Positions 38,040 to 56,617 of a DNA stretch of 64,000 nt are shown piece by piece; the first letter of the stretch is position 1, and each line of letters opens with the position of its first letter. The notes under the pieces were generated by a model that saw only the letters and a list, made by a program, of their open reading frames with translations, did no database searches and was not told the DNA's origin. Source of the DNA: Candidatus Pacebacteria bacterium CG_4_9_14_0_2_um_filter_40_15 (GTDB taxonomy: Bacteria; Patescibacteriota; Microgenomatia; UBA1400; PJMF01); assembly GCA_002788675.1 (NCBI GenBank), contig PFRS01000001.1, positions 234,706 to 298,705 on the forward strand. The letters run 5' to 3'. Position numbers and translations under genes: made by a program.

Positions 38040-40034
38040 TTATTTCTCAGGCGGAGCGTAATCATCTATCGAATAGAGATTTTGCGATTTTCGCTCAGTT
38101 GTGTCCGTTTGCATCTTTTGCTGAAGCTTTTGTTGAGCAGCAGGCTGATTGGGTGTTTGTGCTTGAGGTGGATGTACGTTATCGGCCGCAGCAACTTTTG
38201 CTGCTTGTTGTCGTTTATATATTTCTTCAGGGTTTGTGGTAATGAGTTGATGTTCTTCATCAGAGGCAACAACGCGCAATGCTACATGGTTTTGACCTGC
38301 AAAGAAAATACCTTCACCCACATCGGCCGTGACGAGAAGCTGTCGCTCTCCTTGTGATAGGTAGAATGTTTCAGCTAAGACGGGGATTGAAGCAGTTGAC
38401 TGCTTCATTAAGAATTGAATCGAAGCATTTGTAACAATTGCTTTTCCGTAATCGTTATGGATAAAGTCTTCAACGTCCTGAGTAATAGTCGTGATGCCTA
38501 AGTAGTATTTGCGAGCGCGTTTCACCATAGAGTGAATAAATGAAGCTGAATCTGGATGTTTCATAAAGTACCAGGCCTCATCAACAACGAGAATGCGTTT
38601 TTTGAGATCTTTTTTCACACGAGTCCAGATAAAGTCCAAAATCATATACATGGCAATTGGACGCATTTCTTCTTCCATTTCTTTAACAGAGAAGACAGTC
38701 AACTGATTGGTAATGTTTATGTTTGATTTTTGATCAAAGATACCTCTAAAAGATCCAGTAATGAATTTTTCAAGGCGGGCAGCGATATCATTGGCATCAT
38801 TATTTTCCATACCAATAAGTGCTTTGTAGACGTCCTCCATGAGTGGTGGCTCGTTTGTTTGAGTAGCCGGATCCGGGGTGATACCCTTTGCTTTATAGGC
38901 TGCAACAAGTGCTCTATCAAGCAAGGCTTCTTGCTGAGCAGACATTACTCCCAACATAACTTTAAGGAGCCCATGGAGAGATATAATTTTTTGGCCGAGT
39001 TCGTTTTCACCTTCTTCATACAGATTGGAAAGATCGAATGGATTAATTTTAGATTCAGAACTAAACGTGAAGTTAATGTATTGCCCTTCAACAGCTACTG
39101 CCAGATCTTCATATTCGTGTTCCGGATCAAGTACAATCACTTCTGCACCAAACATAAGTTGTCTGAGAATTTCGAGTTTAACGGTATATGATTTTCCAGC
39201 ACCAGATTTTGCGAAGATGACCATGTTGGCATTTTCCATTTTGAAGCGGTCAAAGATGATCAATGATTCATTATGCTCGTTAATGCCATACATGATTCCG
39301 GTTTCCATGGTGAGTTCACTTGATGTGAAGGGAAAGGTTGTTGCAAGAGATGTGGTATCCATGTTTCGAGTAACTTGGAGCTTGTCCACACCCATTGGGA
39401 GCGTCGACTTAAAACCATCGTCCATTTGAAGCGTGGCTTTTTTAGAAACAATTAAGAGAGAACCCAACGTAGACTGGATAGCTTTAGTAACTCTATCGAG
39501 TTCATCTTTATCTTTTGCCTGAATAGTTACGTACAAACCAAATTGAAAGAATCTTTCAGAACCTTTTGCCAATTCTTCACGAATGTAGCGAGCGTCCTCA
39601 AGTTTAACTTCAGTATTAATGTTTGAGATTTTACCGGCACGAAGGTCTGATTGGATTTCAGCTTCCATTTCAGTAATTTTTCTTTTGAGGTTGTCAAGAA
39701 TTTCACCTGAATCGACAGGATACACAAACATTGAAACATTTATCTGATGAGGAAAGTTAATAAGTGGTGAAAGCCAGTTAGCTGGAACGGATCGGGGATA
39801 CCCCGCCACAAACAGTGTCCGGGTAAAGGTCTCATTAATTTTTTGAAAAGTGAAGTCAACTTCAATGGCTTCAGGAGCAATAATGTCTTGAATAGTGACT
39901 AAGCCTCGAGAGAACTCTTGCAGTTTTTCGAGTTCGCGCTTTTGTTTTTCAAGCTCTTTTGCTTCAGGAGTAGCTTCTGCTGGAGCAGCAGTTTTTTTCT
40001 TTCCAAATGGTAGTAGTGAGCTTAAGTCGGGCAT
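38040..40034 (-). CDS. VirB4/TrbE/CagE-family T4SS ATPase
   Basis: Walker A AKSGAGKSYTVK; Walker B ILVVDEAWYFM; ITTITQDVEDF; size and order of motifs typical of VirB4. Confidence 0.8.
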   Translation of the reverse strand: MPDLSSLLPFGKKKTAAPAEATPEAKELEKQKRELEKLQEFSRGLVTIQDIIAPEAIEVDFTFQKINETFTRTLFVAGYPRSVPANWLSPLINFPHQINVSMFVYPVDSGEILDNLKRKITEMEAEIQSDLRAGKISNINTEVKLEDARYIREELAKGSERFFQFGLYVTIQAKDKDELDRVTKAIQSTLGSLLIVSKKATLQMDDGFKSTLPMGVDKLQVTRNMDTTSLATTFPFTSSELTMETGIMYGINEHNESLIIFDRFKMENANMVIFAKSGAGKSYTVKLEILRQLMFGAEVIVLDPEHEYEDLAVAVEGQYINFTFSSESKINPFDLSNLYEEGENELGQKIISLHGLLKVMLGVMSAQQEALLDRALVAAYKAKGITPDPATQTNEPPLMEDVYKALIGMENNDANDIAARLEKFITGSFRGIFDQKSNINITNQLTVFSVKEMEEEMRPIAMYMILDFIWTRVKKDLKKRILVVDEAWYFMKHPDSASFIHSMVKRARKYYLGITTITQDVEDFIHNDYGKAIVTNASIQFLMKQSTASIPVLAETFYLSQGERQLLVTADVGEGIFFAGQNHVALRVVASDEEHQLITTNPEEIYKRQQAAKVAAADNVHPPQAQTPNQPAAQQKLQQKMQTDTTERKSQNLYSIDDYAPPEK

Positions 40035-40048
40035 TAGGTTCTATCTTA

Positions 40049-41599
40049 CTAGATTTCTGGGAGAGGAGGAAGGTCTGCTCCAGATTTTTGGTCGTTAGTT
40101 GGTGTTGCTGCTTGAACAGGTTCCGTTGTAGTGGGTATCTCAAAAATTGGTTCGATTGGTGATCCCAGTGAAGCTGCTTTATCTGGACTGGTTGTGTTCA
40201 TAACAGCACCGGCATCAGGAACAACAGCACTTATTGGTGAAGGTGCAGCTTGTTGCATATTGGGTAGTGTGGGTTTTGGTAGATCAGATGAACCAGTTGT
40301 GGAAGCAAGCGTTGGCCCTACAACCGCAGGTTTTGGTGTTGAAGGAGAACTCTTGATTGGAGATTGAGGAACAGCGACAGGTATTTCAGAAACAGTAGGT
40401 TCAGCCTCTTCAATAGTTGCTGTTTCAGTTGGAGTTGTTGTTTGTGATGGAACAGTTGTGTCTGTTGGTTTTTCAATAGCATTAGTTGGTTCTGGTTGAA
40501 TTGGTTCTGTTGAAGCAGTGGGTTCAGCTAGAGTAACAGCTACTGGCTCGGGTGATGCTAGGGGGTCTGGTGTCGCCGGTGCAGGACTTTCAGTTGGCTG
40601 GACAGCAACTTCAGGTTGTGTTTGGGCATCGTCTACAGGAGTAGGTGTTGCTGGCATTTGAGTTGGCGTATAGCCTTGAGTTGTTGCCGTTTGAGCTGGA
40701 AAAGAAGTGCTTTCTTGAGGAAGCGTTATTTCAGAAGGAAGTGTTACTGGGAAATCGGGTGATAGCTGGGCAGGAATACTTGCAGGTTCAGGAACGGGTG
40801 TTGGAAGAGCTCCTGGGAGAGTAGCTTCTTGTTCTTGAATAGCTGTAGCTGCCGCTGTGGCAACAGGAACAGGCTGATTCATGGTTGGGTTTTGAGCGTC
40901 GTTCATCGTGGCTCCTTCAACTCCAGCTGTGACCATTGGAGTGGTGTAATTACTAGTGTCAGAAATTTGCTGCCCCTCGGCCGCTTCTGGGTTATAGCTT
41001 ACATAGAAAAATTGAATGATCTCTTGAGTTGCTAGTTGTCTAGCAAAAAGTCCAATTCTTCCAAACTGGGCAAGTAAGTGATCTCGTTTTGGTTCAAGTA
41101 AATTGCGAGCCTTTTCAATTACAGCAGTGCGTTGCTCGGGGTTAATAGCTGAGGTATTTGACTGACCAGGCATGATACTCTGAGCAGGTAAAATTCCCAG
41201 CTCGATAGGCGCTGCTGAAAGTGCCACATAGAATTTTTTATCAAGAACATTTCTTTCTCTAATTAAATTACCGACAAACTCTCGATAGCGACGGATTCGC
41301 TGTTGCTGTGTTCGAGATGTTGATTGATCTTCTTGGTCTTTGAGAATTTGAAGATAGCTAGTTACGTCTTTTGTTTGTGAATGGATAATAATCTGAATTG
41401 GATAGTTAAGAGAATTGAGTAATCCTGCATAAGAATACATGATGCTGTCTTGTTCTTCTTCAGCAAGCAAACCGAAGTTCATTGCATCAACTTGAATAAT
41501 AAGAGAACAGGTACCATCCTTGAGAATTACCATGTTATTAGTAATATCGAAAATATCAAGAAATTTTTGAGTGGTTGAGTGTAAAATATTTTCAGTCAT
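40049..41599 (-). CDS. Hypothetical T4SS-operon protein: about 240-aa N-terminal domain plus 270-aa Pro/Thr/Ala-rich tail
   Basis: No TM; the tail is PTxxP/TTPTE-type low complexity; 14 nt upstream of virB4-like. Confidence 0.4.
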   Translation of the reverse strand: MTENILHSTTQKFLDIFDITNNMVILKDGTCSLIIQVDAMNFGLLAEEEQDSIMYSYAGLLNSLNYPIQIIIHSQTKDVTSYLQILKDQEDQSTSRTQQQRIRRYREFVGNLIRERNVLDKKFYVALSAAPIELGILPAQSIMPGQSNTSAINPEQRTAVIEKARNLLEPKRDHLLAQFGRIGLFARQLATQEIIQFFYVSYNPEAAEGQQISDTSNYTTPMVTAGVEGATMNDAQNPTMNQPVPVATAAATAIQEQEATLPGALPTPVPEPASIPAQLSPDFPVTLPSEITLPQESTSFPAQTATTQGYTPTQMPATPTPVDDAQTQPEVAVQPTESPAPATPDPLASPEPVAVTLAEPTASTEPIQPEPTNAIEKPTDTTVPSQTTTPTETATIEEAEPTVSEIPVAVPQSPIKSSPSTPKPAVVGPTLASTTGSSDLPKPTLPNMQQAAPSPISAVVPDAGAVMNTTSPDKAASLGSPIEPIFEIPTTTEPVQAATPTNDQKSGADLPPLPEI

Positions 41600-42932: not shown

Positions 42933-43565
42933 TTAGCGAGGAAAAGCCTCTGGCTGAGTTGCTTCTGTGCTTAATTGACGCCCCCAGTTGAGCATAAAGG
43001 TTTCTGTGTCGGTTGGTTCAAAATGCCAAGTTTGATTAATAACTTTATTTGAGATGTTGGCAACAATTACTAAGCCTTCATCTAAAAATACGTGTGCTTT
43101 AACATTTTCATTCACTTGAGGTGCGAATAATTCAAAGTCGGGCTCACCATAGAGAGTGATGTAGTTTGAAAGTGTATTGTTTTCATCGAACTTTGCTGGA
43201 ATCTGAATAAATTCGACAATTCCTTCTTTATTTACGAGTATCTCATTATGATAGGCTGCAAAATGTTCAGAGGAATAGGTAATATGTTGTTTTTCAGCTG
43301 GTAGATTCTCAACTTCGAGAGGTTTTCCTAACTCTTCGAGCAGTTTTGGAGTCAGTTTAAATCCAGGAGTTAGGCCTTGCCATGTGTTTTCTTGAACGGG
43401 AGGTTCTTCAATGGGAATAAACTGTTGAACTGCTGATGCGATTACCAGCAACACTGCCAAGACAGCTAAAAAGATGAAAATAATTTTTGTATATTTATTT
43501 TTTTTTGGTTGCTTTGATTGCTCGTACGCTTGATTCTGGTATTTGTGGGCATTTTGTTGTTGCAT
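42933..43565 (-). CDS. Membrane-anchored hypothetical protein (translationally coupled, TAATG overlap)
   Basis: ATG at 43565 overlaps the TAA of the upstream giant gene; TM IIFIFLAVLAVLLVIASAV; 210 aa. Confidence 0.4.
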   Translation of the reverse strand: MQQQNAHKYQNQAYEQSKQPKKNKYTKIIFIFLAVLAVLLVIASAVQQFIPIEEPPVQENTWQGLTPGFKLTPKLLEELGKPLEVENLPAEKQHITYSSEHFAAYHNEILVNKEGIVEFIQIPAKFDENNTLSNYITLYGEPDFELFAPQVNENVKAHVFLDEGLVIVANISNKVINQTWHFEPTDTETFMLNWGRQLSTEATQPEAFPR

Positions 43566-46500
43566 TAGTATTCTATCCCTCCAAAAATATTTTCTTGAAT
43601 CCATGCATATTCTACCGGATAGCGAGACTTGAATGGGAACATGCCTGTCCAGCCATCATTGCTGAAGCTGAGTGTTTGCCAGACAACATAGTCTACAACA
43701 GCTTCTGCAAATGCTTCACCCTCTGAACAGTTACCCGGAACTGGATAGGTAAAGCAGCCGGAATCTCCGGGAAGCGGAGAGGTCTGAATTGCTTTGAATT
43801 GTGTTTGTAAATCTGGCATTGATGGAACAGCTGGTTGGTTTCTAGCATTTATCATATGCCCAGTTTCATGGACTATGGTGTATTCCATCCATTCCACGCT
43901 TGAATTAAAGAAGTCACCGTAAAAACCAATTTTTTCGGTGTTCACTCTCCAACCATAGTATCCTTGAGGGCTTGGTGGCCATTTATGTAGTGAAATATCG
44001 CCTTTTTCACAGAGAAGTGACAAGTACTTGGGATTAGTTCCAACCTTGCTAATAAATGCTCTTAGGAATTTTATAATGTCATCTTTAGTCCACTCAACGG
44101 AGGTATTTACGATAGTTTGGCCAGCGTCATTTTTATATTCTGTTGGTTGATCAGCAGGGGCAAACTCAAAACATCCAATCGGAGGATCTCCTATAATTAA
44201 CATACCGAGTGCCGAGATACTTTCTCCTTGTATTAGGAGCTTTCCGCTGCCGTCATATACGTCAACAACAAAGGTAACGGTATTAATTACCAATGCATCT
44301 TCACCAGAAATTGGCAGCGTATATTCAGCTGTTTGAACGGTTGAAAATTTTTCTTGATCAAAGTTATCAATAGTTAGCGGAGAGTCTGGAACTGTTGCCT
44401 CACCGCCAAGAACCAAAAATTCGTCAGTGACGCGTTTAATTTGCAGGGCATAGCCAGGCTTGGGAAGTATTTTAATTTCGTATGAAATGTCCTTTTCCTC
44501 ATTGTTGTCAATTTCATCAGGCGTTGGTGTTTTTACTATAGTTGCGTATTTAGAGACAGTTGGAGTGCCTTTACTAATGGTAAAGGGCATCGGTACCAAA
44601 AAAGCACCCATGATGACCATAAAAACAATCAATGTCATAAATCCAGGCAAAATAACACTTGTCCCCACTGCGATTGCGGGAAGTGAGGTTAAAAATGAAC
44701 CAGTAGCTGCTGCAGCAGCTTGCAGTCCCGATACTGTTGCAGCCGCAGGAGCAGTTGCTGTCGCGGTGGATCCAGCAACGGCTTGTTGACCGATGTTAGT
44801 AACAGCCTGTACAGCATTGCCTGTTCCTTGAATAACCCCATTTGCTGCTGCTTGGGTACCTTTTGCAATTTGGAGAGGTGTTGTAGCGCTTGTTCCGCTG
44901 CCAAAGACGGAGTTTGCTCCAAATGAGGGAGCGCTGAGCCCTGCGCTAGCAGTACCAGTGGCTGGGCCCTTGCCTATGAGGTTCATGAACCAATTTTGGG
45001 CGGCTAGACCTGCGTTGGCGCCAGCAGACACTCCTAAAAATATAGCGAGTGGGCTTCCAACTCCAAGTACGCCACCTATAATTCCACCAGCAACTCCTCC
45101 AATCATACCTCCCACAGTTTGAAGGGCTTGAATGGTTTTATAGATCAGGGCGCCAACAGCGCCAGCAGTGAGACCAGTTAGGGCTAGGGCTAGTTTTTTT
45201 GTATTTTCTTTACCAATAAGTAATTCAAGTGCTCGAGCTCCAGCAACAACTGCAGTACCCACTCCGGTACCCATAGCAAGTTTTTCTGCAATTTTTTTTG
45301 CAGCTTCGGTTTTGATTTTGCTTGAGGCTGGGTTACCAGCTGCTGCCTTAAATGCGCCCGAAAGCTTTGATGCTGTTCCGGTAGCGGCAGCGACATTATC
45401 AGAACCTGATCCAGTTTTTTTGTTTGAGTCTCCGCCCGATGAGATTTGTTGCTGTGAGACGACCATTTCTTGCAAGCTTTGTTGATCGAGCGGCACTTGC
45501 TCATGCATCTGATCTAAAACTTTTTCATCAATTTGAATTACGAACTCGTTTCGAATGTGAAGGGATAGTGTTTCAGCTCGTTGAACGGTTACAACATATT
45601 CGTTCATCTCTTGAGCTATTGCTAGTTGCTCAAGTTGCGCTTCTTCAGCGACTGTTTGTTCATCAATAATTATTTGAGTGTACTTTTTTAAAAATTTTGG
45701 ATCGAGTTCAGCAATGTTAATTGGCATGGGATATCCCTCAGGAGGATGTTTGCCATCTGGGGTTGGATAATATGCTCCCAGTAGTGCCATTGCAACTGCC
45801 TGTTCTTCAGGTTTAAGGCTGCGCCAAGTTAATCCAAATATTTTTTCATTTTGTTCAAGAGCACGTTGAATTTTTTTTCCTGTTTTATCACTTGTAGTTG
45901 AAATTGCATCTGCAGTAAGTTCACCCTTTTCATCACCACTTGATGCATGAGAAGTAATGGTGTTTCTTACACTGTTGATCAACTCAACTGATTCAGCAGA
46001 GCCCAGGTCTGCATCACCAATAAGACCATCTTTAGTTTTTTCTTCTTGTGTATGTAGTGTGAGTTCAGACACTCTAATTTCAACAAATGAAACAAGAGTT
46101 CCCTTAAGGGCTTCAACTTGATCAGGAGTTAAATCATATGCGGAAAGACCAAATATAAGTTCAATTTTTTGTTTATCAAATGAACTAATAAGCCCAATGG
46201 CTTTGTCACCATGGGTAATCGCTATACTTTCAACAATTTTTTCAACATTTTTATCAACTACTGGATTTTTATCATTAATAATTGAATGCAGTTTTTTCTC
46301 AAAAATTTCTTGAGATGAGCGAACCTCGTTAAATTGAGGAACATTATTTTTTTCGTAAAAGTTTTTTTCTCTAAGTAGTCTGCTTAATCCTCGTATAGCT
46401 TTGAGTCGGGCAGTTGGACTACCAGAAAGCAGAGCTGCTAGGTCACCTTCTTTACCTAAATATTGGGTAGCGTAGTCAGTTAATTGGGCCCTCAATGCTG

Positions 46501-47308
46501 GATCAAGGTCACTCATCTCAACACCCATGCTGTCCGCAATTTGAAGCATAGTGAAGCTCGTCATCCAGCCGACACTAATGCCATATTGTTTTAGTTGTTC
46601 TTGGGAAAGTTGTTCGTTGAGTGGACGTTTAGGATCAATTACTTGATCTTTTTTGAGAAGTGTTTCAGATGCATCCTCGTCGTCTTCAGCATCACCGTCA
46701 CTTGTGTTGGGGGTATTACTTTCACTGAGTTCTTTTCTGAGTTTAATTTTAATATCCTCAGCTGCTTCTTGTGTTTCTACTTCCTCAATAATTTCATCTT
46801 CTTCTTTTTCTGGTTCAGGTTCATCACTTTTTGCAAAAGCAAGAGCTAGTTTATTTGCTAGCTCAGCAATTTCATGTCTTTTTGTCCATGTTGTTAGTTC
46901 GTCGACGACGTCAACCGGTGTGTTAGAAGCAGAAACCCAAGACTCAAGTTGTTTTTCGGTTGTTGCATATGCTTTAAATGCTTCTCGAGAAGCGGAATTT
47001 CTGAATTTTTGAGCTAAGTCGAGCAATATTGCCGCATAATCAGACCAATAAAAATTGTCATCCTGTTCTTCTATTGGGACACCATCTCTTGTGTAATGAG
47101 AAACAGTTAATTCATGTATGTTGCGATCTGAATCAAGAGGAATTCTAACAATCAAGCCAGATTGTAATTCTTCATTACGAACTACTTTTTGGAGCTCTTT
47201 AAGTACTTCTTCAAGTTGAGGACGATTCCGTTTTAATGACAGAGAAGAATTAAGTCGTTTTACGTCTTTAATTTTGACTTCTTCTGGAAGATTATTGTCG
47301 GCTGCCAT
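43565..47308 (-). CDS. Giant (1247 aa) protein: acidic coiled-coil N-terminus, Gly-zipper membrane core, C-terminal HExxH zincin-like metallopeptidase domain
   Basis: IVHETGHMINA (HExxH), with a downstream CSEGEAFAEAVVDY segment that could supply the third zinc ligand (not verified). The central region has GxxxG/AxxxG repeats (GGMIGGVAGGIIGGVLGVGSPLAIFLGVSAGANAGLAA). Confidence 0.55.
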   Translation of the reverse strand: MAADNNLPEEVKIKDVKRLNSSLSLKRNRPQLEEVLKELQKVVRNEELQSGLIVRIPLDSDRNIHELTVSHYTRDGVPIEEQDDNFYWSDYAAILLDLAQKFRNSASREAFKAYATTEKQLESWVSASNTPVDVVDELTTWTKRHEIAELANKLALAFAKSDEPEPEKEEDEIIEEVETQEAAEDIKIKLRKELSESNTPNTSDGDAEDDEDASETLLKKDQVIDPKRPLNEQLSQEQLKQYGISVGWMTSFTMLQIADSMGVEMSDLDPALRAQLTDYATQYLGKEGDLAALLSGSPTARLKAIRGLSRLLREKNFYEKNNVPQFNEVRSSQEIFEKKLHSIINDKNPVVDKNVEKIVESIAITHGDKAIGLISSFDKQKIELIFGLSAYDLTPDQVEALKGTLVSFVEIRVSELTLHTQEEKTKDGLIGDADLGSAESVELINSVRNTITSHASSGDEKGELTADAISTTSDKTGKKIQRALEQNEKIFGLTWRSLKPEEQAVAMALLGAYYPTPDGKHPPEGYPMPINIAELDPKFLKKYTQIIIDEQTVAEEAQLEQLAIAQEMNEYVVTVQRAETLSLHIRNEFVIQIDEKVLDQMHEQVPLDQQSLQEMVVSQQQISSGGDSNKKTGSGSDNVAAATGTASKLSGAFKAAAGNPASSKIKTEAAKKIAEKLAMGTGVGTAVVAGARALELLIGKENTKKLALALTGLTAGAVGALIYKTIQALQTVGGMIGGVAGGIIGGVLGVGSPLAIFLGVSAGANAGLAAQNWFMNLIGKGPATGTASAGLSAPSFGANSVFGSGTSATTPLQIAKGTQAAANGVIQGTGNAVQAVTNIGQQAVAGSTATATAPAAATVSGLQAAAAATGSFLTSLPAIAVGTSVILPGFMTLIVFMVIMGAFLVPMPFTISKGTPTVSKYATIVKTPTPDEIDNNEEKDISYEIKILPKPGYALQIKRVTDEFLVLGGEATVPDSPLTIDNFDQEKFSTVQTAEYTLPISGEDALVINTVTFVVDVYDGSGKLLIQGESISALGMLIIGDPPIGCFEFAPADQPTEYKNDAGQTIVNTSVEWTKDDIIKFLRAFISKVGTNPKYLSLLCEKGDISLHKWPPSPQGYYGWRVNTEKIGFYGDFFNSSVEWMEYTIVHETGHMINARNQPAVPSMPDLQTQFKAIQTSPLPGDSGCFTYPVPGNCSEGEAFAEAVVDYVVWQTLSFSNDGWTGMFPFKSRYPVEYAWIQENIFGGIEY

Positions 47309-47370
47309 GATTCGATTATACCAGGGAAAACAGTAGTTAGAAAGTTGGCATGTTAATTTTTTACTTTAAA

Positions 47371-49287
47371 TTATTTGGAGAAAGAGGCAATTTGTGATTT
47401 AAATTCATTTTGGTTTGCTTGAAAGACGGTAATAATTTTTTTTGCCGTTTTTTCTGGTTCTAACACAAACTCTGAAAGATTTACTTTTTTTGAAAGATAT
47501 AAAAGTATTGGGTGAGCTAATATTCTCACAGAATCGAAGAACTCATTGAAGAGAAGATCGCTCACATCCACAGATTTCTTTAATGATTCTTTTAATAGAA
47601 ATAATACATAGTCAAAGCTTTTCATGTCCTCATTATTTGAGACACCTTTTTTAAAGGCACTTTCAAGAACAGAAAAACTTTGTTCAGGATTATTGAGCAA
47701 ATCATTTTTAAGATTTTGACGTAATGCCTCTAGCTGAGCATGTTCGGATTTTGTTAAAACCAGATCATCATTTCCGCGAGAGTCACCTCTCAGGGCCCAA
47801 CCACAAGGTCCAATGGGTATGCCGTCTTCAGATAACTGGAGAGAATTTGATTTAAAGAAATCAGAGTATTCCTTGTGGTGTTCTGCTTTAATGAACCAAG
47901 TTTCTCCATTAGATAAGCGAAGTGGTAAATACTGCAATGTGTTTAGATAGTGTAATGCCTCAATTTTTTCTTTTGGTCCTAGGCTTGTTAGCATGCCTGG
48001 AATTGTTGGAATTGGTATTCCTGGAATAGCAGAAAGTATTTGTTCTGACATCATTCTAGTTGGAATAAATGTGCCTATGCCACATTGTCCAAGGCTTAAG
48101 CCTTTTGAAGTTGTTGAGAGAAGCATATTAGAAAGTGAATTATGCTCATCCACTAGATCAGATTGAATTTTTTGACCATGTAGTTTTCTTACATTTAAAT
48201 CATATATTTTGAGTAATCCATTTTTAACTTTATCTTGAGTAAGGTCTTGAATTTGCAGATCTGATGTATTATTGCTTTTCATTAACTTCAAGTAGTTTGT
48301 TTTGTTTGTGTTATTTGTATCACTCCCTTCTACCCACTTTATGAGTGGTTGATAGGCGAGAATGCCAAAAGCAATATCCAACTGCTTAATGAGCTGAGCG
48401 TATTCTTTTGACTGAACAAAATTCATCCAAAGTGGGTCAGTATGACTTTCAACTTCGGGTACTTTTGATAGTAATAGTGGAATAACTTTGCTAATATACA
48501 GGCTTAATAAAAAGTCCCTAAATTGAGCATATTTTTGTTCATCAATTTGTGGCATTTCGTGTGGTTTAACCTTCCAGGAATCAGATGACGAATAGGCTTT
48601 TTTTTCTAGTAATGAAACACATTCAAGTGTGGTGGAACAGTTTAAGTCTTTGGGTGAAACGATTTGTGTGTTATTAATTATTTTATGCGAGTCTATTCGT
48701 GAAGAGTTATCAAAACCTTCGTTTTGGGTAATGAACTTTTGAAAATCCAAATGATCTTGAAGGCTCATCCATGTTCTGTACTGATGAAGTACTACTGTGG
48801 TAGGTGAAGTCTTTTCATATACAAAAATAAATGAATGTGAATTAAGTCCAGCATATCCCTCTGAGACTAGCCCAGGAGGACTGTTCCAAACAAATAACTG
48901 GCCGACCGGTGCGGTAGAAGACCACAAGTCAAGTTTAATCATGTTGTTGGTTTCAATTTGGGCTCGACTTGGTGATTTTTTTTGATTGATGAGTTTATCT
49001 TCAAAATGTTCACCCATACCAAGAATACCTGCGGTGTAAGAACTCATCATTCCAAGAAGTCCATTCTGTTGATCGACGTCCATCTGAAAAGCAGAAATTA
49101 CTTCACCTCTAGTATATTCAGCGGCAAACGAAATGAAATTAGCTGTTAACAGTGTTGAAAGTGCATCAAAATCACGATATTCAGATAAAGCCGCGATGCG
49201 CACATACGCTGCGGCATCCCATTGATCAAACTGACTAACAACAGCTTCTTTCTGATTTATAGGGTTGCGTGATTCTTTTTGTAACAA
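47371..49287 (-). CDS. Hypothetical protein (638 aa), first gene of the T4SS-like operon
   Basis: No recognisable motif; TTG start at 49287 overlaps the U-tract of the leader hairpin; true start uncertain. Confidence 0.4.
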   Translation of the reverse strand: MLQKESRNPINQKEAVVSQFDQWDAAAYVRIAALSEYRDFDALSTLLTANFISFAAEYTRGEVISAFQMDVDQQNGLLGMMSSYTAGILGMGEHFEDKLINQKKSPSRAQIETNNMIKLDLWSSTAPVGQLFVWNSPPGLVSEGYAGLNSHSFIFVYEKTSPTTVVLHQYRTWMSLQDHLDFQKFITQNEGFDNSSRIDSHKIINNTQIVSPKDLNCSTTLECVSLLEKKAYSSSDSWKVKPHEMPQIDEQKYAQFRDFLLSLYISKVIPLLLSKVPEVESHTDPLWMNFVQSKEYAQLIKQLDIAFGILAYQPLIKWVEGSDTNNTNKTNYLKLMKSNNTSDLQIQDLTQDKVKNGLLKIYDLNVRKLHGQKIQSDLVDEHNSLSNMLLSTTSKGLSLGQCGIGTFIPTRMMSEQILSAIPGIPIPTIPGMLTSLGPKEKIEALHYLNTLQYLPLRLSNGETWFIKAEHHKEYSDFFKSNSLQLSEDGIPIGPCGWALRGDSRGNDDLVLTKSEHAQLEALRQNLKNDLLNNPEQSFSVLESAFKKGVSNNEDMKSFDYVLFLLKESLKKSVDVSDLLFNEFFDSVRILAHPILLYLSKKVNLSEFVLEPEKTAKKIITVFQANQNEFKSQIASFSK

Positions 49288-49589: not shown

Positions 49590-52500
49590 ATGAGTATGGG
49601 TAGATCAGAGTCAATATCAACACCACTATCTGAACAGTACAAGGCGTTAGTTGTTGATCTTGTTAATGCTATTAAGGCTAAGGATTTTGTTTCAGCTGCT
49701 AACAAAATGTCTGATATTCAGATGGTCATTTCGTATGAGATAGCCACTACAGATTATTCGAATCTAGATAATGAACGTAAATACCCAGGCCTTGCAGATT
49801 TTAATTATTTTTTTGGTGATATTGAAACAGATTGGCAAGAGATTCCCTATTTAGCAGCCCAGATTTCAGATGTGGAACCCGCTGCAGCAGTTGTAGCGGA
49901 TGATGTTGAGCCGGTAGCCTCCAAACCTGTTGCAGCTGAAGCTCCCGTAGCCCCAGAAAATAAAGAAAAAACATGGATTCAAGAATATGAAGAGAAGAGA
50001 ATAGCGTTGGCTCGACTAACGTATGCAACTCAAAAAGCTTCTGATGCAAGCTTTGCTCAAAACTTTGATTTCTTTAATGAGCTTTTAGCTGCAGATGAAG
50101 AGACGGATATTCAAGAGCTTATTGATTCAAATAAAATTGATCCGGTTGATCATTCGATTGTTGAAAAAATTAACGAACTTGTTGCGGAAATAAACCTTAG
50201 GATTCAAACTGAGTCTCTTGGAGATGAAAAAGAAAAATATGATGTTCAAAGAGAGCTAGTAGGACAATTAAAAGAATCTGTTAGATCATTTGAACCAGTA
50301 CTGGTTGCTAACAAACTATTTACTGATGTTGTCTCCTCTTATAGTTCAATACTTGTCGTAAGATCAACGTTTGACCCAGGATCCTATGATTCAATAGATC
50401 TGTTTGAAGCAGAACTAAAAACAACAACAAAAAAACTTGCTGGCATAACATCAAAGATTGATGCTTTAGATTCGATTTCAACACAACTTGATCAAAAAGA
50501 GAGAGTTAATTTTTTGCGAGAAGTTGTCTCACGAGTTTCTCGAATAATTTCAAATGGAGAAAATGAAGTTGAAACCTCTCGCAAACTCTTACAAGATGCT
50601 GAGTATATTGACTTTGTTGCAGAAGTTGATAAGAAAACAGAACTTTCCAGTCTTACTTCTGAAGTTGCTCGTCCACCAGCAGATGTCACTACGTCTGATA
50701 TAGATATTGATCGAAGAATTGACAGGTTGAAGCAAAAACTTGCTGAGTTTAAGGCCGCTATACAAGCAGACCCTTCGTTTAGTGATGCTGCAAAAGAACA
50801 GTATTTAAGAACTGATTTTAATGGTTTTGAAAAATCTGTGACAGAAAAAGCAGCATTACTTCAATTCCAAATGGATTCTAATACCACTTATAGAAAGTTG
50901 CTTGATTTAACTACAAAAGTTGCGGCAGGTGTTTCTGAAGATGAGCTGGAAAAAATTCGAGTAGAGGCAGAAAGCTACAATGGTCAAATAACAGAGTTAG
51001 AATCACGCAAAGATGCTCAACTTACTACGTACGTTGATACCCTTACTAAGGTCTATTATGATCTGTTAAAAGTCACAAAATCTAAGATTGAATCTGAAAG
51101 AAAGACGTCAGTCTTTAAAAAGCTTGAAGAAAGATTAGAAAAAGCCACTCAAACAGCAACATACGTTGTTGATTCTCATCACGATGAAGTATGGGAGACA
51201 TATGAATCTATACAACAAGCCTATGAGTCGTTTGCAGAATCATACGGAAGCAATGAAGAATTCGAAAAGAAACTTAAAATTGAATTTTATAAAATTTATC
51301 GAAGATCCATGCTTGCTGCACTTGATGAAATTGAAAGAGAAGAGCAGCCGTCCCCAGCATGGAAATCAATATTTCAAGATAAAATACTTGGAAAATCACA
51401 AAATCTTGTTCAGGATATTGTTGGAATTAGTCTGGGTAGCTTAGATGATTTTACTGAGGCAGTAAAAACTAAAGGGACTGCTGGTGCAGTTACGGTAGAT
51501 ACTCGAACCTTAACACTGCATGAGCAAAATTTAATTGAAGATTTTAATAAACTCAGAACAGAGTACGTGTCAAGAAAGTTTTTACATCTCAGCTGGACTG
51601 CAAATAGAGTTGGTGTTCTTGGTAGAGGTGAAGGAACAAGAACCTTTCCAAACTTAAATATAGATGAAAATTGGCCAATTGGTGTCGTACTTAACTACCT
51701 AATGAAGGATGGACTTCGAAGTAGTGAAGTAGGAGATGGTCAAATCTTAAGTGAAATTACCAATCCGATTATGGAAATTCAAAGGGTCGATCACCCACTT
51801 GGATTCTCGACAGATGCGGACGGAAATTTAGTTGCAACAGAAGGTGATGTTGCTCTATACGATGCTTCGAAAAGAGGTACAACCAAGCATGACGTTGCAC
51901 TTTTTGAAGATGTCTTCCTGGCGATGGATGATTGGGTTGCCGGCACTATTAAAGCAAGAAGAGGCACGGGAGATGTTCATAATGATGTTGATGGTGTAGC
52001 TGAAGACATCATGCTGTTCTTACAAAAAAAATATCCAGATAGAAAAGATGAAATAACAAAAGGAGATGTAAGAAGAGCTGTTAGATCATATCTTATCGTT
52101 ACGTATCATCAGTCGGTGAGATCGCACCGCAGTGCGATTTTATCAGATAAAATGATGTATCAGTGTTCATTTTACCTGTACAGTGAAAAGTATTCTGAGG
52201 ATGGTACTGCTGGATGGAATCCGAATTTTGTTAAGGCCATGTATGCCTATCCGTATCCTGCAGGATCTGATCTGAGCAGGGTAGATCCAATGTATGTGAC
52301 TAAGGGAAATTATGTGAATACGATTCCTGTGATTCTCGGAGAACATCCTGATATTGATGCTGAAAAACATTGGATATTTAGGGTTCTTGAAGGTAAGCCT
52401 TTTACTCAAATGGAGAATGCTTTGCGCGATGAAGGCTTTTTGGTCGACATGCAAACAGCATTTAATCATTCTGATGGAAGACCTAAAACCTTTGCTGAAC

Positions 52501-53372
52501 TAGATCCTAAAATTCAAGCTCGATTGGAAGAAGATCACTTTGTTGGCTATAATTTCTTACTTCGACCACTTATTAGAATGGCTGATACAACTCAAACTGC
52601 TCGGACAAAAGATGTTATTTTGGACACTCCAGATCCTGTAACGGGCAAACATTACAGAAGAGAAACTGTTCCAGATGAAAAAGATGCTGGTGAAATGTAT
52701 ACTCAAATGCCACCGATGGCAACAGTTTTTCTAAAGGATAAAAATGGAAATATTATTAGATATCGTGAAAAAGATGGTAGAAAAACCAGAGCAGTATCTC
52801 TCTTTGACCTCAGAAATGAAAATGACCAGATTATGTATGGTCTGATTGATTGGGACAAATATAGTATTGATTTAGCTTCAGAAGTAACTGGTTTGCATAA
52901 AAATGGTGCAAATTTCTTGGACAATTTCTTAAAGACTAAAGACGTTCTTAAATCATTAGAAGATCCAGCAAAGGTTTCAGAATTATTAAATGACGCAAAA
53001 TATGTATTGCGTCACTTACCGGATCTTGGACAGTATATTGCTGCAGGAATTCACGCAACAGATGAAGTAAAAGCCCAAGGATATGATAGTCCATATTACA
53101 TGTTAGACAAAGGATTTATGAGAACAATCATTGCTCAAATGGTCTTTCATGGTTGTTTAGCTCGAATGCTAAGTGATGAAAAACCCTGGAGAATGGCTGA
53201 TGTGCAATCATATTTAATTAAACTCTTAAGACCTGAAAGTAATGCTATATCTGTTGAAACAGCTGAAGCAATATATATCTCTCTCAATGCCGCACTCGGT
53301 CGCAAAGCTATGGTTAAAGCTGTGGTTGATCAGGCTAGAGTACAATTCAGAGAGAGATTTAAACACTCTTAG
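49590..53372 (+). CDS. Giant (1260 aa) soluble hypothetical protein, divergent from the T4SS-like operon
   Basis: No signal peptide, TM or catalytic motif recognised; coiled-coil-rich N-terminal half; TATAAT directly abuts the first ATG (possible leaderless start; second ATG at 49596). Confidence 0.5.
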   Translation: MSMGRSESISTPLSEQYKALVVDLVNAIKAKDFVSAANKMSDIQMVISYEIATTDYSNLDNERKYPGLADFNYFFGDIETDWQEIPYLAAQISDVEPAAAVVADDVEPVASKPVAAEAPVAPENKEKTWIQEYEEKRIALARLTYATQKASDASFAQNFDFFNELLAADEETDIQELIDSNKIDPVDHSIVEKINELVAEINLRIQTESLGDEKEKYDVQRELVGQLKESVRSFEPVLVANKLFTDVVSSYSSILVVRSTFDPGSYDSIDLFEAELKTTTKKLAGITSKIDALDSISTQLDQKERVNFLREVVSRVSRIISNGENEVETSRKLLQDAEYIDFVAEVDKKTELSSLTSEVARPPADVTTSDIDIDRRIDRLKQKLAEFKAAIQADPSFSDAAKEQYLRTDFNGFEKSVTEKAALLQFQMDSNTTYRKLLDLTTKVAAGVSEDELEKIRVEAESYNGQITELESRKDAQLTTYVDTLTKVYYDLLKVTKSKIESERKTSVFKKLEERLEKATQTATYVVDSHHDEVWETYESIQQAYESFAESYGSNEEFEKKLKIEFYKIYRRSMLAALDEIEREEQPSPAWKSIFQDKILGKSQNLVQDIVGISLGSLDDFTEAVKTKGTAGAVTVDTRTLTLHEQNLIEDFNKLRTEYVSRKFLHLSWTANRVGVLGRGEGTRTFPNLNIDENWPIGVVLNYLMKDGLRSSEVGDGQILSEITNPIMEIQRVDHPLGFSTDADGNLVATEGDVALYDASKRGTTKHDVALFEDVFLAMDDWVAGTIKARRGTGDVHNDVDGVAEDIMLFLQKKYPDRKDEITKGDVRRAVRSYLIVTYHQSVRSHRSAILSDKMMYQCSFYLYSEKYSEDGTAGWNPNFVKAMYAYPYPAGSDLSRVDPMYVTKGNYVNTIPVILGEHPDIDAEKHWIFRVLEGKPFTQMENALRDEGFLVDMQTAFNHSDGRPKTFAELDPKIQARLEEDHFVGYNFLLRPLIRMADTTQTARTKDVILDTPDPVTGKHYRRETVPDEKDAGEMYTQMPPMATVFLKDKNGNIIRYREKDGRKTRAVSLFDLRNENDQIMYGLIDWDKYSIDLASEVTGLHKNGANFLDNFLKTKDVLKSLEDPAKVSELLNDAKYVLRHLPDLGQYIAAGIHATDEVKAQGYDSPYYMLDKGFMRTIIAQMVFHGCLARMLSDEKPWRMADVQSYLIKLLRPESNAISVETAEAIYISLNAALGRKAMVKAVVDQARVQFRERFKHS

Positions 53373-53650: not shown

Positions 53651-55429
53651 TTAACTACCTGCTCTATCTTCATTTGAATTTGCTCCGCCAGCTGGTACTG
53701 CACCTGTTGAGCTTGTCTCAGCACCTCTATTACTTGGAGCCTGAACTCCACCTCTACCAGACAAGCCAGCATTTCGTAATGCCATATCATTAAGTACACG
53801 TTTTGCAATTTGGCCTGATTTACTTTCATTTCTTTCAAGTCTTCTTTGGGCTTGTCCAATTGACTCACCAACTAGGAATTGACCAGCTTCTTGTTTAGCT
53901 GCGTTGTAGGTAGATCTTATAAGTGGTTTAGCAACTTTTATACCAGTAGGAACAGCTGCACCAATTGCTGCGCCTCTCCCCGCACCTTTCCAGAAGCTAC
54001 CACCTTTACTCTTAGCTCTTACACCACCAATTGCTGCTCCAGCAGCACTTGATCCTGCTGATGCACCTAGGAAGGCACCACCCTTCATGATATTTTTAGC
54101 TCCGACGCCCTTATATCCTTCCCATCCTTTTTTAGCTCTATCCGTAGCCCAACCAGCAACCTTAGTTCCAAAGCCTTCTTTAGCGCCGACTTTTTCTTTT
54201 ATTTCTTTCACAATTTCAGGCATGGCCAAAATAAGTGCCAGCCCCATTAAAGATGAAATTGCTCCTGCTTGTCCACGACCAAGTAAGAAAGGAGGCATAA
54301 AGCCGCCACTTGTAGCGTTACCTAAGTCAGTAAATTGGTTGTAGAGAATAACTATAAAAAGAACTGTTGGGAATGCCGCTAAGTTTCCTGCGACATTGCG
54401 TAGCCAAGGTACGAAGGCATTATTACCTGGAATGGCACCCATCATGAGTGTAATTGGCGAGATAACAGTTGCAATAACCACGTTTGCGTAACTCTTAAGG
54501 AGTTCAAAGAAAAGTTTAAAAGTACCAAATATAACGGCGACGGTCAAAATTAAGGTGAGCGTCATGCCTCCAACAAATCCAAACGCAGTAGTCAGTCCAT
54601 TGTCGGCACTGACTAGGTTTGAGAGCATATTAGTAATGAGGTCAACATTCTGGTTAAATGATCCAGCAACGTTTCCAAACAAAAGTCCTCCAATTTGGAG
54701 AATATTAAAGTCGATTACATTAGCATCAGCCAGGCGTGTATCAAAGATACCAATCATTAGGAACATAAGCAGATACATTAAATCAATCATGAATCCAGCA
54801 ATAGCATACGAAAAGGTAACAAAGAGCAGCGACACAATTATACTTGGGATAGCTTGTTGTGCGGTTACGTCTGCACCATTCACTTTATTCCGGAACATAA
54901 TCATAAAACCAATAATCATGAATACAAACACAAAGAATAAGTAGGCCATATTTCGGAATGTTTTCCAGAGAGAAAGAATTGGATCAAGAGCAGCAAAGCC
55001 AAGTCCTTGAGCATACGCTGGAGTAGCAATGTGTGCGCTCTTCATAACGTCGGCAACATAGGTTCCTGTGCTTGCTGGAGGGTTTGCATACATCTGGCCG
55101 ATTAAGTAGACGAAGCCGCTTGAAACCATGTTTGGTTGTGGGACACTCGAACCAGGTCCGGTTCCGGTTCCACCAGCAGATGGAGGAGTACTTTGGGCTG
55201 GCGCATTTGCAATTTCAAATTGAATATATTTATAAACATGATGCACCAAACACTCCAAAGAAGGAGTGCCGCAGTCTTGGATAGCTTCATTATATGAATC
55301 TTTTAAGGCTGATTCGTAGGCAGGACTAAAAGGACTTTCGCCTTGAGCTTGCACGCTAGCAGGGTTCCCAAAACCAATAAGGAATACAAACGCAACTGCT
55401 AGTAGTGCGGTGAGGGCTCGTTTGAGCAT
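53651..55429 (-). CDS. TrbL/VirB6-like polytopic T4SS membrane protein with Gly/Ala/Ser-rich C-terminal tail
   Basis: Signal peptide (AVAFVFLIGFGNPASVQAQ); 6-7 TM helices in the central region; C-terminal about 200 aa of GAxxGA low complexity, typical of TrbL/VirB6 family members. Confidence 0.55.
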   Translation of the reverse strand: MLKRALTALLAVAFVFLIGFGNPASVQAQGESPFSPAYESALKDSYNEAIQDCGTPSLECLVHHVYKYIQFEIANAPAQSTPPSAGGTGTGPGSSVPQPNMVSSGFVYLIGQMYANPPASTGTYVADVMKSAHIATPAYAQGLGFAALDPILSLWKTFRNMAYLFFVFVFMIIGFMIMFRNKVNGADVTAQQAIPSIIVSLLFVTFSYAIAGFMIDLMYLLMFLMIGIFDTRLADANVIDFNILQIGGLLFGNVAGSFNQNVDLITNMLSNLVSADNGLTTAFGFVGGMTLTLILTVAVIFGTFKLFFELLKSYANVVIATVISPITLMMGAIPGNNAFVPWLRNVAGNLAAFPTVLFIVILYNQFTDLGNATSGGFMPPFLLGRGQAGAISSLMGLALILAMPEIVKEIKEKVGAKEGFGTKVAGWATDRAKKGWEGYKGVGAKNIMKGGAFLGASAGSSAAGAAIGGVRAKSKGGSFWKGAGRGAAIGAAVPTGIKVAKPLIRSTYNAAKQEAGQFLVGESIGQAQRRLERNESKSGQIAKRVLNDMALRNAGLSGRGGVQAPSNRGAETSSTGAVPAGGANSNEDRAGS

Positions 55430-55654: not shown

Positions 55655-56617
55655 ATGTTAGATCAGGCTCAGTTAAATACAATTCGATCCTATTTTGAAC
55701 AGGCCCATACAGTTACCATCGTTTGCGGGGTAGAACCCAGCATTGATGTTTTGGCCGCAGTTTCCGTTTTAAACCAAGCCCTTGCTTCTCAAGGAAAAGA
55801 AATTCAGTTAGTCAGTCCAAATACTATAGATTCTCCCGTTGTTTCAGGACTGGGTGGGGTAGAAGACTCAATTGGTAATCAGAACTTGGTTGTAAGTTTT
55901 CCCTATGATGAAACAGCTGTCGACAAGGTGAGTTATCATATTGGTGAAGATTCAGGTCAGTTTTTTCTTACCATAAAGCCAAAAAAAGGTCATGATCCTT
56001 TAGATTCTAATCAAGTTGAGTTCACCTATGCAGGAGTTGAAAGTGATTTGCTTGTACTGGTTGGTGTGACAAACTTCGATGAACTCAACCAGCTCTACGT
56101 TGGATATGAAGAGTTCTTTGAGAAAACTCCAAAAATTTCATTTACTGCTAATGGTTCTAAACTCGGAAACGTAAATATTTCATCTACAGGCTATTCGTCG
56201 ATTAGTGAATGCTTATTGGTTCTCTTAAACAGCTTACAAATCGATTTTTCAGTTGATAGTGCGACTAATTTGTTCTCGGCAATCGATGTGGAAACTGATT
56301 ACATGCGCTCACTAAAGGCAAGCGCTATTACTTTTGAAGCTGTGGCTCAACTCATGAGACTCGGTGCTCGCAGAGTAAGGCCTGAAAAACTACAAAAGCA
56401 AGATGTTGGGCAGAAAGTTTCGACTCGTCCTCTACAAGAAACAGAAATAGCAATTTCAAGTTCAAAATCACAAAAGAAACAAGATTCTCTAACTGAACAA
56501 CAAAATCAATCTAAGAAGATGAAACTGAAAAAACACAAACAGTCTCTTCCTAAAGATACAAGAAACCAACCTGGTGGTCTTAAGTATGATCCATCTAATG
56601 GTATTTCACGAAACTAA
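55655..56617 (+). CDS. DHH/NrnA-like fold protein with degenerate catalytic motifs
   Basis: Layout resembles NrnA-type DHH phosphoesterases (VTIVCGVEPSIDVLAAVSVLNQAL; LVLVGVTNFDEL), but the canonical DHH and GGGH motifs were not seen. Confidence 0.3.
   Translation: MLDQAQLNTIRSYFEQAHTVTIVCGVEPSIDVLAAVSVLNQALASQGKEIQLVSPNTIDSPVVSGLGGVEDSIGNQNLVVSFPYDETAVDKVSYHIGEDSGQFFLTIKPKKGHDPLDSNQVEFTYAGVESDLLVLVGVTNFDELNQLYVGYEEFFEKTPKISFTANGSKLGNVNISSTGYSSISECLLVLLNSLQIDFSVDSATNLFSAIDVETDYMRSLKASAITFEAVAQLMRLGARRVRPEKLQKQDVGQKVSTRPLQETEIAISSSKSQKKQDSLTEQQNQSKKMKLKKHKQSLPKDTRNQPGGLKYDPSNGISRN

Follow-up and report, generated by a model that had tools for sequence, protein, structure and literature searches.

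The 1247-aa protein encoded at 43565..47308 on the minus strand of a 64,000-nt stretch of the genome of Candidatus Pacebacteria bacterium CG_4_9_14_0_2_um_filter_40_15 (contig PFRS01000001.1, forward-strand positions 234,706 to 298,705; the whole stretch is referred to as the window) belongs to a conserved, lineage-specific and so far unannotated family that is linked with Patescibacteria's type IV secretion system (T4SS). We consider the chances slightly better than even that it is a membrane-anchored, extracytoplasmic, envelope-cleaving peptidase subunit of this T4SS, accompanied by a partner protein specific to its catalytic head. The original prediction, made from the sequence of the window, had treated the protein as a non-standard oddity within one operon; instead, T4SS clusters of Patescibacteria carry it as a conserved component.

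The open reading frame (1247 aa and a stop codon) was correctly delimited in that prediction and lies on the minus strand, and its start codon is backed by a conserved MAA(E/D)NN N-terminus among homologs. NCBI carries the identical protein as ‘hypothetical protein [Candidatus Pacebacteria bacterium]’ (NCS98128.1, PIR64192.1 and others) from Candidatus Pacebacteria and Paceibacterota metagenome-assembled genomes (MAGs), with contigs of up to 1.19 Mb. All sources name the family members ‘hypothetical’, and a literature search gave no paper describing the family. The whole protein has no match in Pfam (at E ≤ 0.01), NCBIfam or the PDB sequences.

An exhaustive HMMER search of 1.84 billion representatives, with clusters at 50% identity, showed that the family comprises at least 248 clusters at E ≤ 1e-3, of which 139 reach E ≤ 1e-10. 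We dissected 150 listed family sequences with hidden Markov models (HMMs) of parts of the protein. Among these, 95 distinct sequences contain a zincin domain, while 42 others have a beta-sandwich, often together with the membrane region and the N-terminal body, without the zincin. Word-index homology searches returned only 3, 1, and 1 matches (three close relatives and one fragment first); for proteins of this kind few such matches do not mean rarity, as can be seen from the HMMER result. A scan of GTDB with the full-length alignment gave no match, and with the C-terminal alignment it gave two Patescibacteria MAGs. The GTDB record of one family locus, L006 (JACKFX010000007.1), is titled ‘MAG: Pseudomonadales bacterium isolate HK-STAS-PATE-16’; its gene content is Patescibacteria-like and the title therefore looks mislabelled.

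Twelve distinct family members were examined with their DNA context, and they show two arrangements. In type A loci (the window, L001, L005, L006, L007, L008, L011, L012, L013, and L014) the family gene is followed by a small membrane protein, PrgI, a TraC-like protein, and then VirB4 and dnaA where the contig reaches that far. Type B loci (L009 and L010) have the order PrgI, TraC-like, VirB4, family gene (841–916 aa) and a protein of ∼190 aa. Homologs of PrgI and the TraC-like protein (TrsD) are adjacent in 12/12 loci. The co-occurrence with VirB4 that the original prediction had singled out for a homolog search is seen in all 11 loci whose contig extends far enough. Upstream, a homolog of the 638-aa protein of the window directly precedes the family gene in L001, L005, L006, L007, L012, and L014, with a different neighbor in L011 and L008.

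The cluster of the window is on the minus strand and encodes, in the order of transcription, seven VirB2-like pilins, proteins of 1154, 592, and 638 aa, the 1247-aa protein, and its 210-aa partner. These are followed 3′ of the partner gene by PrgI/VirB3-like, TrsD/TraC-like and VirB4 genes and then by dnaA, dnaN, rnpA, yidC, and jag. Chromosomal, origin-proximal T4SSs without a relaxase are known from Patescibacteria (PMC12102498), and the cluster is of this type. Southlakia epibionticum needs its T4SS for epibiotic growth (PMC10633639).

The head of the protein was modeled with AF2 on aa 913–1247 using a 29-sequence alignment, giving a predicted local distance difference test (pLDDT) score of 91.5 and a predicted template modeling (pTM) score of 0.85. 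The model shows a beta-sandwich and then an alpha/beta domain, where a long helix (aa 1138–1156) with the HExxH motif comes after strands and a later helix (aa 1196–1209) carries E1198 and E1202. As expected of a zincin fold, the model has a mixed beta-sheet in which an edge strand comes ahead of the active-site helix. The original prediction had proposed a zincin, to be refuted by a structure lacking the active-site helix or by an HExxH that homologs do not conserve; HETGH indeed sits in such a helix and is conserved, so that neither condition refutes it. Its ‘C-terminal 350-aa domain’ holds as far as the C-terminal HExxH region is concerned; rather than one domain, this is an immunoglobulin (Ig)-like beta-sandwich (aa 913–1042) and a zincin of ∼205 aa (aa 1043–1247).

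HETGH (aa 1147–1151) is the only HExxH in the protein, intact as had been predicted, and the chance of finding this motif in a protein of the same composition is ∼1%. Each of the 95 family sequences with a zincin domain also has exactly one HExxH, so the motif is conserved in all homologs that carry the domain (95/95). In an alignment of 61 heads with 24–60% identity to that of the window, H1147, E1148, H1151, Y1188, E1198, F1200, C1046, and C1100 are invariant, E1202 is kept in 60/61, and C1185 and C1194 co-occur in 46/61. The consensus reads YTxxHExGHxxxxR ... Y1188 ... E1198-x-F-A-E1202, with all positions at least 98% conserved. The downstream segment with a possible glutamate ligand in the original prediction is EAFAE, which begins with the invariant E1198 (61/61) and ends with E1202 (60/61). 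All four Cys residues of the protein (C1046, C1100, C1185, and C1194) are within the last 205 residues.

Searches of the PDB sequences with the family HMM gave PPEP-1/Zmp1 (E 0.027), lethal factor (LF; E 0.038) and the ATLF-like 9g0j (E 0.18), matches that are consistent but not significant. The alignment spans HExxH through E-FAE in register and places E1198 on E185 of PPEP-1, which fits the proposed role of EAFAE as source of the glutamate ligand. PPEP-3 has the catalytic residues His153/Glu154/His157, Tyr190, and Glu197, and PPEP-1 has Tyr178 and a zinc-coordinating Glu of the Glu184/185 pair (PMC12828418). Given the fold model, the invariant motif set and the in-register alignment with PPEP-1 and LF, the head is most likely a gluzincin working like the M34 and ATLF-like enzymes. 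In Pfam, four C-terminal domains searched at E up to 10 gave single non-significant matches only, to M78 and to the YgjP-like metallopeptidase domain.

The head shares its motifs and their order (HExxH, Tyr, E-x-F-A-E) with the M34/ATLF zincins, i.e., the LF catalytic domain, PPEP-1 (Zmp1), PPEP-2, and PPEP-3. These enzymes are extracellular and sometimes attached to the wall through extra domains (PMC12828418). Identity to them in structural alignments is 9–17%, and the spacings are longer in the head (37 from His to Tyr and 10 from Tyr to Glu) than in M34/ATLF-like enzymes (32–33 and 7). Unlike them, the head has two probable disulfides and sits in a T4SS cluster behind a body of ∼900 aa, made up of a presumably cytoplasmic part, membrane segments and a stalk of Ig-like type. 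MtfA (peptidase M90), a cytoplasmic regulator-binding aminopeptidase, has no sequence match to the protein and an unrelated context.

The zincin is not the only head found on this body. In the 42 relatives without zincin the beta-sandwich is followed by GCWP(T/S)SG...H...DA(Y/F)DI, which is an M23-type head. M23 enzymes are peptidoglycan endopeptidases. Peptidase_M23 scored above the Pfam threshold in 12/12 non-zincin members scanned, four of which have a NAGPA phosphodiester glycosidase domain in addition; the order M23, then NAGPA (PF09992), is seen in P0118, P0122, P0131, P0147, and L014:6001-10029. Judging from this domain match, a NAGPA-type enzyme could cut phosphodiester-linked wall polymers, which would extend the envelope chemistry beyond peptidoglycan. 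Both types share the junction (I/V)GxPxxGC, found in 71/95 zincin-type and 37/42 M23-type members, and the M23-type P0048 is homologous to the protein of the window over aa 11–594 and has the same cluster position. The protein of the window itself has no recognized peptidoglycan-hydrolase domain (SLT, CHAP, NlpC/P60, M23 or M15) and carries the zincin instead.

The two head types are interleaved when the loci are ordered by VirB4 identity to the window. The zincin loci L001, L006, and L005 come first (96, 92, and 90%), followed by the M23 loci L012 and L008 (87 and 86%), the M23 plus NAGPA locus L014 (79%), the zincin loci L011 and L007 (77 and 76%) and finally the type B zincin loci L010 and L009 (61 and 60%). 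The family protein also evolves much faster than its neighbors, with 64–67% identity in L001 compared with 96% for VirB4 and 86% for DnaA. Between relatives VirB4 is 96% identical and the neighboring genes 56–72%.

The gene that follows the family gene changes with the head. In all eight zincin-head loci (8/8), including both type B loci, it encodes a member of one family of single-pass membrane proteins of ∼200 aa, with BLASTP E-values of 1e-7 to 1e-109 and eight invariant residues in the alignment. In the four M23-head loci (4/4) it belongs to another family of ∼330 aa, for which 5/6 pairwise comparisons are significant (E 1e-6 to 4e-85). The M23-type partners (L008:8846-9856, L012:13725-14720, L013:4018-5028, and L014:10052-11011) are likewise single-pass membrane proteins. 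There were no cross hits between the two families (hhalign probability 3%), and for neither did Pfam or the PDB sequences give a match. No similarity to the N-terminal body of the protein of the window can be detected in the type B zincin proteins, yet they have the same partner family; in P0048 the body is recognizable and the partner is of the other family. As head types are interleaved on VirB4 identity, and the partner follows the head and not the body, the gene comparisons indicate that head and partner are exchanged as a unit, or cassette, on a conserved machine, in a small sample of 8 + 4 loci. We considered plain phylogenetic divergence as the cause of this co-variation. We rejected it, given the VirB4 interleaving and a partner family that is kept with an unrecognizable body and missing with a recognizable one.

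The layout of the protein and its immediate surroundings is as follows, all on the minus strand:

47315..47323, minus strand: extended -10-like box TGGTATAAT, which stops 6 nt short of the ATG of the 1247-aa protein (putative, from the sequence)
46829..47281, minus strand: N1 alpha/beta domain, aa 10–160 (structure model, local pLDDT 80–90)
46607..46828, minus strand: acidic disordered linker, aa 161–234 (composition, 36% D+E over aa 160–235, and structure model)
45704..46606, minus strand: N2 helical region, aa 235–535 (structure model)
45437..45700, minus strand: single long helix running to the membrane region, aa 537–624 (structure model)
44984..45283, minus strand: glycine-zipper hydrophobic region GGMIGGVAGGIIGGVLGVG, aa 676–775 (hydropathy, alignment, shuffles)
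44699..44983, minus strand: low-complexity linker rich in Gly, Ala, Ser, Thr, and Gln and nearly free of charge, aa 776–870 (composition, no D/E and 2% K+R)
44573..44695, minus strand: strong transmembrane segment, aa 872–912 (Kyte-Doolittle values up to 2.45)
44183..44572, minus strand: Ig-like beta-sandwich stalk, aa 913–1042, ending with the junction IGDPPIGC (structure model, alignment)
43568..44182, minus strand: candidate lethal-factor/PPEP-like gluzincin catalytic domain with all four Cys, aa 1043–1247 (model, alignment)
43856..43870, minus strand: HETGH on the active-site helix, aa 1147–1151 (H, E, and H invariant in 61/61)
43745..43747, minus strand: Tyr1188, invariant, candidate transition-state-stabilizing Tyr (putative equivalent of PPEP-1 Tyr178 and PPEP-3 Tyr190; PMC12828418)
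43703..43717, minus strand: EAFAE, aa 1198–1202, with E1198 as candidate third zinc ligand (alignment, E1198 61/61 and E1202 60/61; alignment with PPEP-1 E185)
43577..43582, minus strand: GGAGGG, Shine-Dalgarno sequence of the partner gene, inside the codons of the conserved C-terminal FGGIEY (sequence)
42933..43565, minus strand: partner gene, encoding a 210-aa single-pass membrane protein (start overlaps the stop codon of the 1247-aa protein, TAATG)

The original prediction had described the N-terminal half as acidic and coiled-coil-rich. What the models show instead is an alpha/beta domain, an acidic disordered linker, a helical domain and one long helix (aa 537–624). The model of the N-terminal 640 residues is mediocre (pLDDT 67, pTM 0.40), with a confident all-alpha domain at aa 235–445 of N2 and low confidence at aa 446–480 and 513–518. 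N2 is kept in 37/152 family sequences, and a fold search with N1 and N2 gave no match. N1 is presumed to be cytoplasmic because there is no signal peptide.

Hydrophobic regions were found at aa 705–765 and, much stronger, at aa 872–912. The GxxxG repeats reported in the original prediction are present, with 11 in aa 676–775 compared with 4.1 ± 1.7 in composition-preserving shuffles (p ∼5e-4), and the glycines of G733–G745 are invariant in five full-length homologs. The region does not match any curated Pfam glycine-zipper family at E ≤ 0.01. It probably forms two to three membrane-embedded helices. The motif MGAFLVPMPFT at the exit of the aa 872–912 segment is invariant in the five full-length close homologs, and 87/108 relatives have a strong hydrophobic segment ahead of the beta-sandwich. 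The lack of a signal peptide, the strong transmembrane segment before the beta-sandwich and the two Cys pairs confined to the head together suggest an internal N-terminus and a head outside the cell.

The stop codon of the gene overlaps the ATG of the partner gene (TAATG, with the ATG at 43565..43563) as originally predicted, and the same overlap is seen in L001 and L006. GGAGGG lies 11–12 nt 5′ of this ATG. The family gene has no Shine-Dalgarno sequence before its ATG. In 10/10 type A loci a TATAAT or TATACT hexamer ends 6–10 nt ahead of the ATG, although the rest of the upstream sequence is unrelated; it is absent upstream in both type B loci (L009 and L010), in which the gene follows VirB4 directly. 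A -10-type box 6–10 nt from the ATG and the missing Shine-Dalgarno sequence suggest a leaderless transcript that starts the unit of the 1247-aa protein, its partner, PrgI, TrsD, and VirB4; such a start would be conserved over deep divergence. A consensus scan for promoters and terminators at 37.8–49.7 kb performed no better than on shuffles, and no terminators beyond chance were found inside the unit from the family gene to VirB4. The protein had been described as translationally coupled inside a T4SS-like operon. The T4SS cluster and the coupling to the next gene are borne out, and the mid-operon position is not, as the gene appears to head its own leaderless unit.

If the protein is an envelope-cleaving subunit of the T4SS, its ∼620 N-terminal residues, which have no signal peptide, would remain in the cytoplasm, while the glycine-zipper segment and the strong transmembrane helix would anchor it in the membrane. 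The Ig-like stalk and the zinc metallopeptidase head would then be displayed outside the cell. In the head H1147 and H1151 are expected to bind zinc together with E1198 as third ligand, with E1148 as catalytic base and Y1188 as catalytic Tyr. The head may cut envelope peptide bonds at the site of the machine, either in peptidoglycan peptides or in wall-attached proteins. The zincin would thereby do the job of the M23 head in the sister proteins and complement the SLT_3 lysozyme-like protein (1154 aa) of the same cluster, and the co-translated 210-aa membrane protein might regulate, inhibit or position the head. The extracytoplasmic head, the zinc-dependent catalysis, the envelope substrate and the partner as regulator or immunity factor are all inferred.

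That the head is most likely an envelope-directed peptidase follows by analogy from the M23 domain at the same position in the sisters, from the SLT_3 protein in the cluster and from Southlakia. The T4SS cluster of S. epibionticum encodes a protein of 1113 aa whose C-terminal domain is DD-peptidase-like, as well as a lysozyme/cysteine-peptidase protein, and both are essential by transposon sequencing (PMC10633639 Tables S1, S2; PMC12102498). The protein at 56673..60137 (minus strand) in the window is a 1154-aa secreted or anchored protein with a weak C-terminal match to the lysozyme-like SLT_3, and its homolog in L011 (L011:1-3100) matches SLT_3 at E ≤ 1e-5. This protein probably cleaves glycan as the counterpart of the peptidase head.

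Several points weigh against an envelope-cleaving subunit. Zinc binding, activity and substrate of the head are predictions, and its likeness to the M23 head is guilt by position. The nearest characterized zincins (LF and the PPEPs) cut proteins, not peptidoglycan. The four C-terminal domains did not match Pfam ATLF (PF07737) even at E up to 10, and because this model is not passed we do not file the head as an ATLF member. The N-terminal half is without recognizable relative and its model, at pLDDT 67, is mediocre, and the topology, with a head predicted to lie outside the cell, is read from hydropathy and Cys distribution.

The exchange of heads can also be read differently. The body could be a delivery or anchoring module and the head a polymorphic toxin against the host envelope at the contact site, possibly released by cleavage, with the head-specific membrane protein downstream as cognate immunity factor guarding the envelope of the producer. 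We regard this as possible but on balance unlikely. It is in line with heads swapped at a fixed junction (IGxPxxGC), with a downstream gene that changes family with the head (8/8 vs. 4/4), and with VirB4 identities along which zincin (90–96%), M23 (86–87 and 79%) and again zincin loci (76–77 and 60–61%) alternate. The partner is recognizable where the body is not (type B) and not recognizable where the body is (P0048), and the low identity of the protein in L001 (64–67%) against 96% for VirB4 fits as well, as does the protein export that is thought to be the role of the Patescibacteria T4SS, which has no relaxase (PMC10633639, PMC12102498). However, there are only two or three head types, all envelope hydrolases, which fits housekeeping wall remodeling too, and the gene is single-copy at a fixed position in the core cluster. 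A head tethered by a transmembrane helix and a 130-aa stalk would have a short reach unless cleaved off, it is equally conceivable that the partner is an activator or has a VirB8-like structural role, and no orphan head/immunity cassettes were seen, although no search was aimed at them. The effector or toxin suggested in the original prediction thus survives in a modified form, in that head and downstream gene exchange together like toxin-immunity cassettes. Slightly less probable again is a T4SS with a built-in exchangeable weapon, in which the extracellular head (zincin, M23, or M23 plus phosphodiester glycosidase) would be swapped together with its immunity or regulator gene between close lineages to fit the envelope chemistry of the host, and would breach the host wall at the contact site, letting the episymbiont feed.

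The remaining explanations concern what the head or the zipper does. An extracytoplasmic zincin could mature or trim the seven VirB2-like pilins or other proteins of the machine, the former as the original prediction had also proposed, and both the pilin array in the same cluster and the fact that the closest characterized zincins cut proteins (PMC12828418) speak for it. We find such processing improbable: the sister proteins carry the peptidoglycan peptidase M23 at the same place, sometimes with NAGPA, and these are cell-wall enzymes and not pilin peptidases; a head-specific partner would be unexpected for a pilin peptidase, and no pilin cleavage motif was identified. A pore-forming toxin, whose glycine zipper would make an oligomeric pore in the target membrane with the zincin as accessory, is very improbable. 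The GxxxG periodicity is significant and conserved, but nothing beyond the motif favors the proposed pore; no Pfam glycine-zipper family matches, and the place of the zipper between a large signal-less domain and a strong transmembrane helix is what is expected for a resident anchor or oligomerization segment. The gene's fixed place in the core of the T4SS cluster likewise favors a resident subunit. It is just as hard to credit an inert structural or adhesive head in which the zincin fold would persist as a module for binding, the way it does in the N-terminal domain of LF, since inactive LF-N-like domains have lost the HExxH, and the invariance of H, E, H, Tyr, and Glu across 24–60% identity points to selection on catalysis.

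As an envelope-cleaving subunit, the protein would resemble the VirB1-like hydrolases (PrgK, TraG of pIP501, CwlT, and CD419) and SEML1_0007 and SEML1_0006 of Southlakia. Like theirs, its gene belongs to a T4SS cluster and has VirB4, VirB3, and TrsD as neighbors. The VirB1-like hydrolases are membrane-anchored with the hydrolase domain outside, and the same layout is suggested here by the predicted topology. SEML1_0007, which we liken to the protein by its description, also has ∼1100 aa and a C-terminal metallopeptidase-like domain, and both the window and Southlakia pair a peptidase with a lysozyme-like enzyme in the cluster. The known T4SS hydrolases, however, use SLT, CHAP, NlpC/P60, M23 or M15-type domains, and none is described with an HExxH, LF-like head. 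The predicted 620-aa cytoplasmic region, the glycine zipper and the head-specific partner gene also set the protein apart from the VirB1-like hydrolases.

Polymorphic toxin-immunity systems (CdiA-CT/CdiI, Rhs, and LXG) and the effector/immunity pairs of bacteria-killing T4SSs (X-Tfe/X-Tfi) similarly have a conserved body, a fixed junction, a variable C-terminal enzyme and a downstream gene that changes with it. They differ from the present family in that this has only two or three head types on a body with transmembrane segments encoded by a single-copy core gene, and in that its secretion, toxicity and neutralization are hypothetical. T4SS-associated wall hydrolases and LF-like zincins are known kinds; new are their combination in a large polytopic Patescibacteria-specific subunit, the cassette-like exchange of head and partner, and the apparent leaderless start.

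Other genes of the window complete the picture of the cluster. It is headed by seven tandem, divergent VirB2-like pilin genes (PF18895; 60174..63885, minus strand), as in the arrays reported from Microgenomatia and Saccharimonadia. The 592-aa protein (53651..55429, minus strand) is multi-pass with faint similarity to a transmembrane protein of integrative and conjugative elements and is possibly VirB6-like. The 638-aa protein (47371..49287, minus strand) has no transmembrane segment and no or only a faint family assignment, as is the case for the plus-strand genes at 49590..53372 (1260 aa) and 55655..56617 (320 aa). The VirB4 function is split, with a 516-aa TrsD/TraC-like protein (40049..41599, minus strand), which resembles the N-terminal part of VirB4, preceding a 664-aa VirB4 ATPase (38040..40034, minus strand), which in NCBIfam matches the CD1110 family best. 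The gene for a VirD4-like coupling protein (TrwB_AAD_bind, TraG-D_C) lies 30 kb from virB4 (9585..12017, plus strand), as reported for many Patescibacteria. An Rfam scan of the window gave no RNA families.

A large part of bacterial diversity is accounted for by Patescibacteria, which are ultra-small and live attached to other bacteria. The only tractable species cannot grow on its host without the T4SS, whose function is obscure (PMC10633639, PMC12857230). The present protein gives this machine a concrete, testable activity, that of an enzyme predicted to be active at the cell surface. Its domains at aa 913–1247 are clean enough for expression, with catalytic residues that can be mutated (E1148, H1147/H1151, E1198, and Y1188). 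The LF/PPEP-like zincins would be extended into the secretion-system components of a new phylum. That nearly identical machines have swapped head and partner suggests that they adapt to different envelopes, and this may offer a handle on host specificity. If the head is an exchangeable weapon, its cassette with the partner would serve as a genomic marker for the host range of uncultured bacteria of the candidate phyla radiation.

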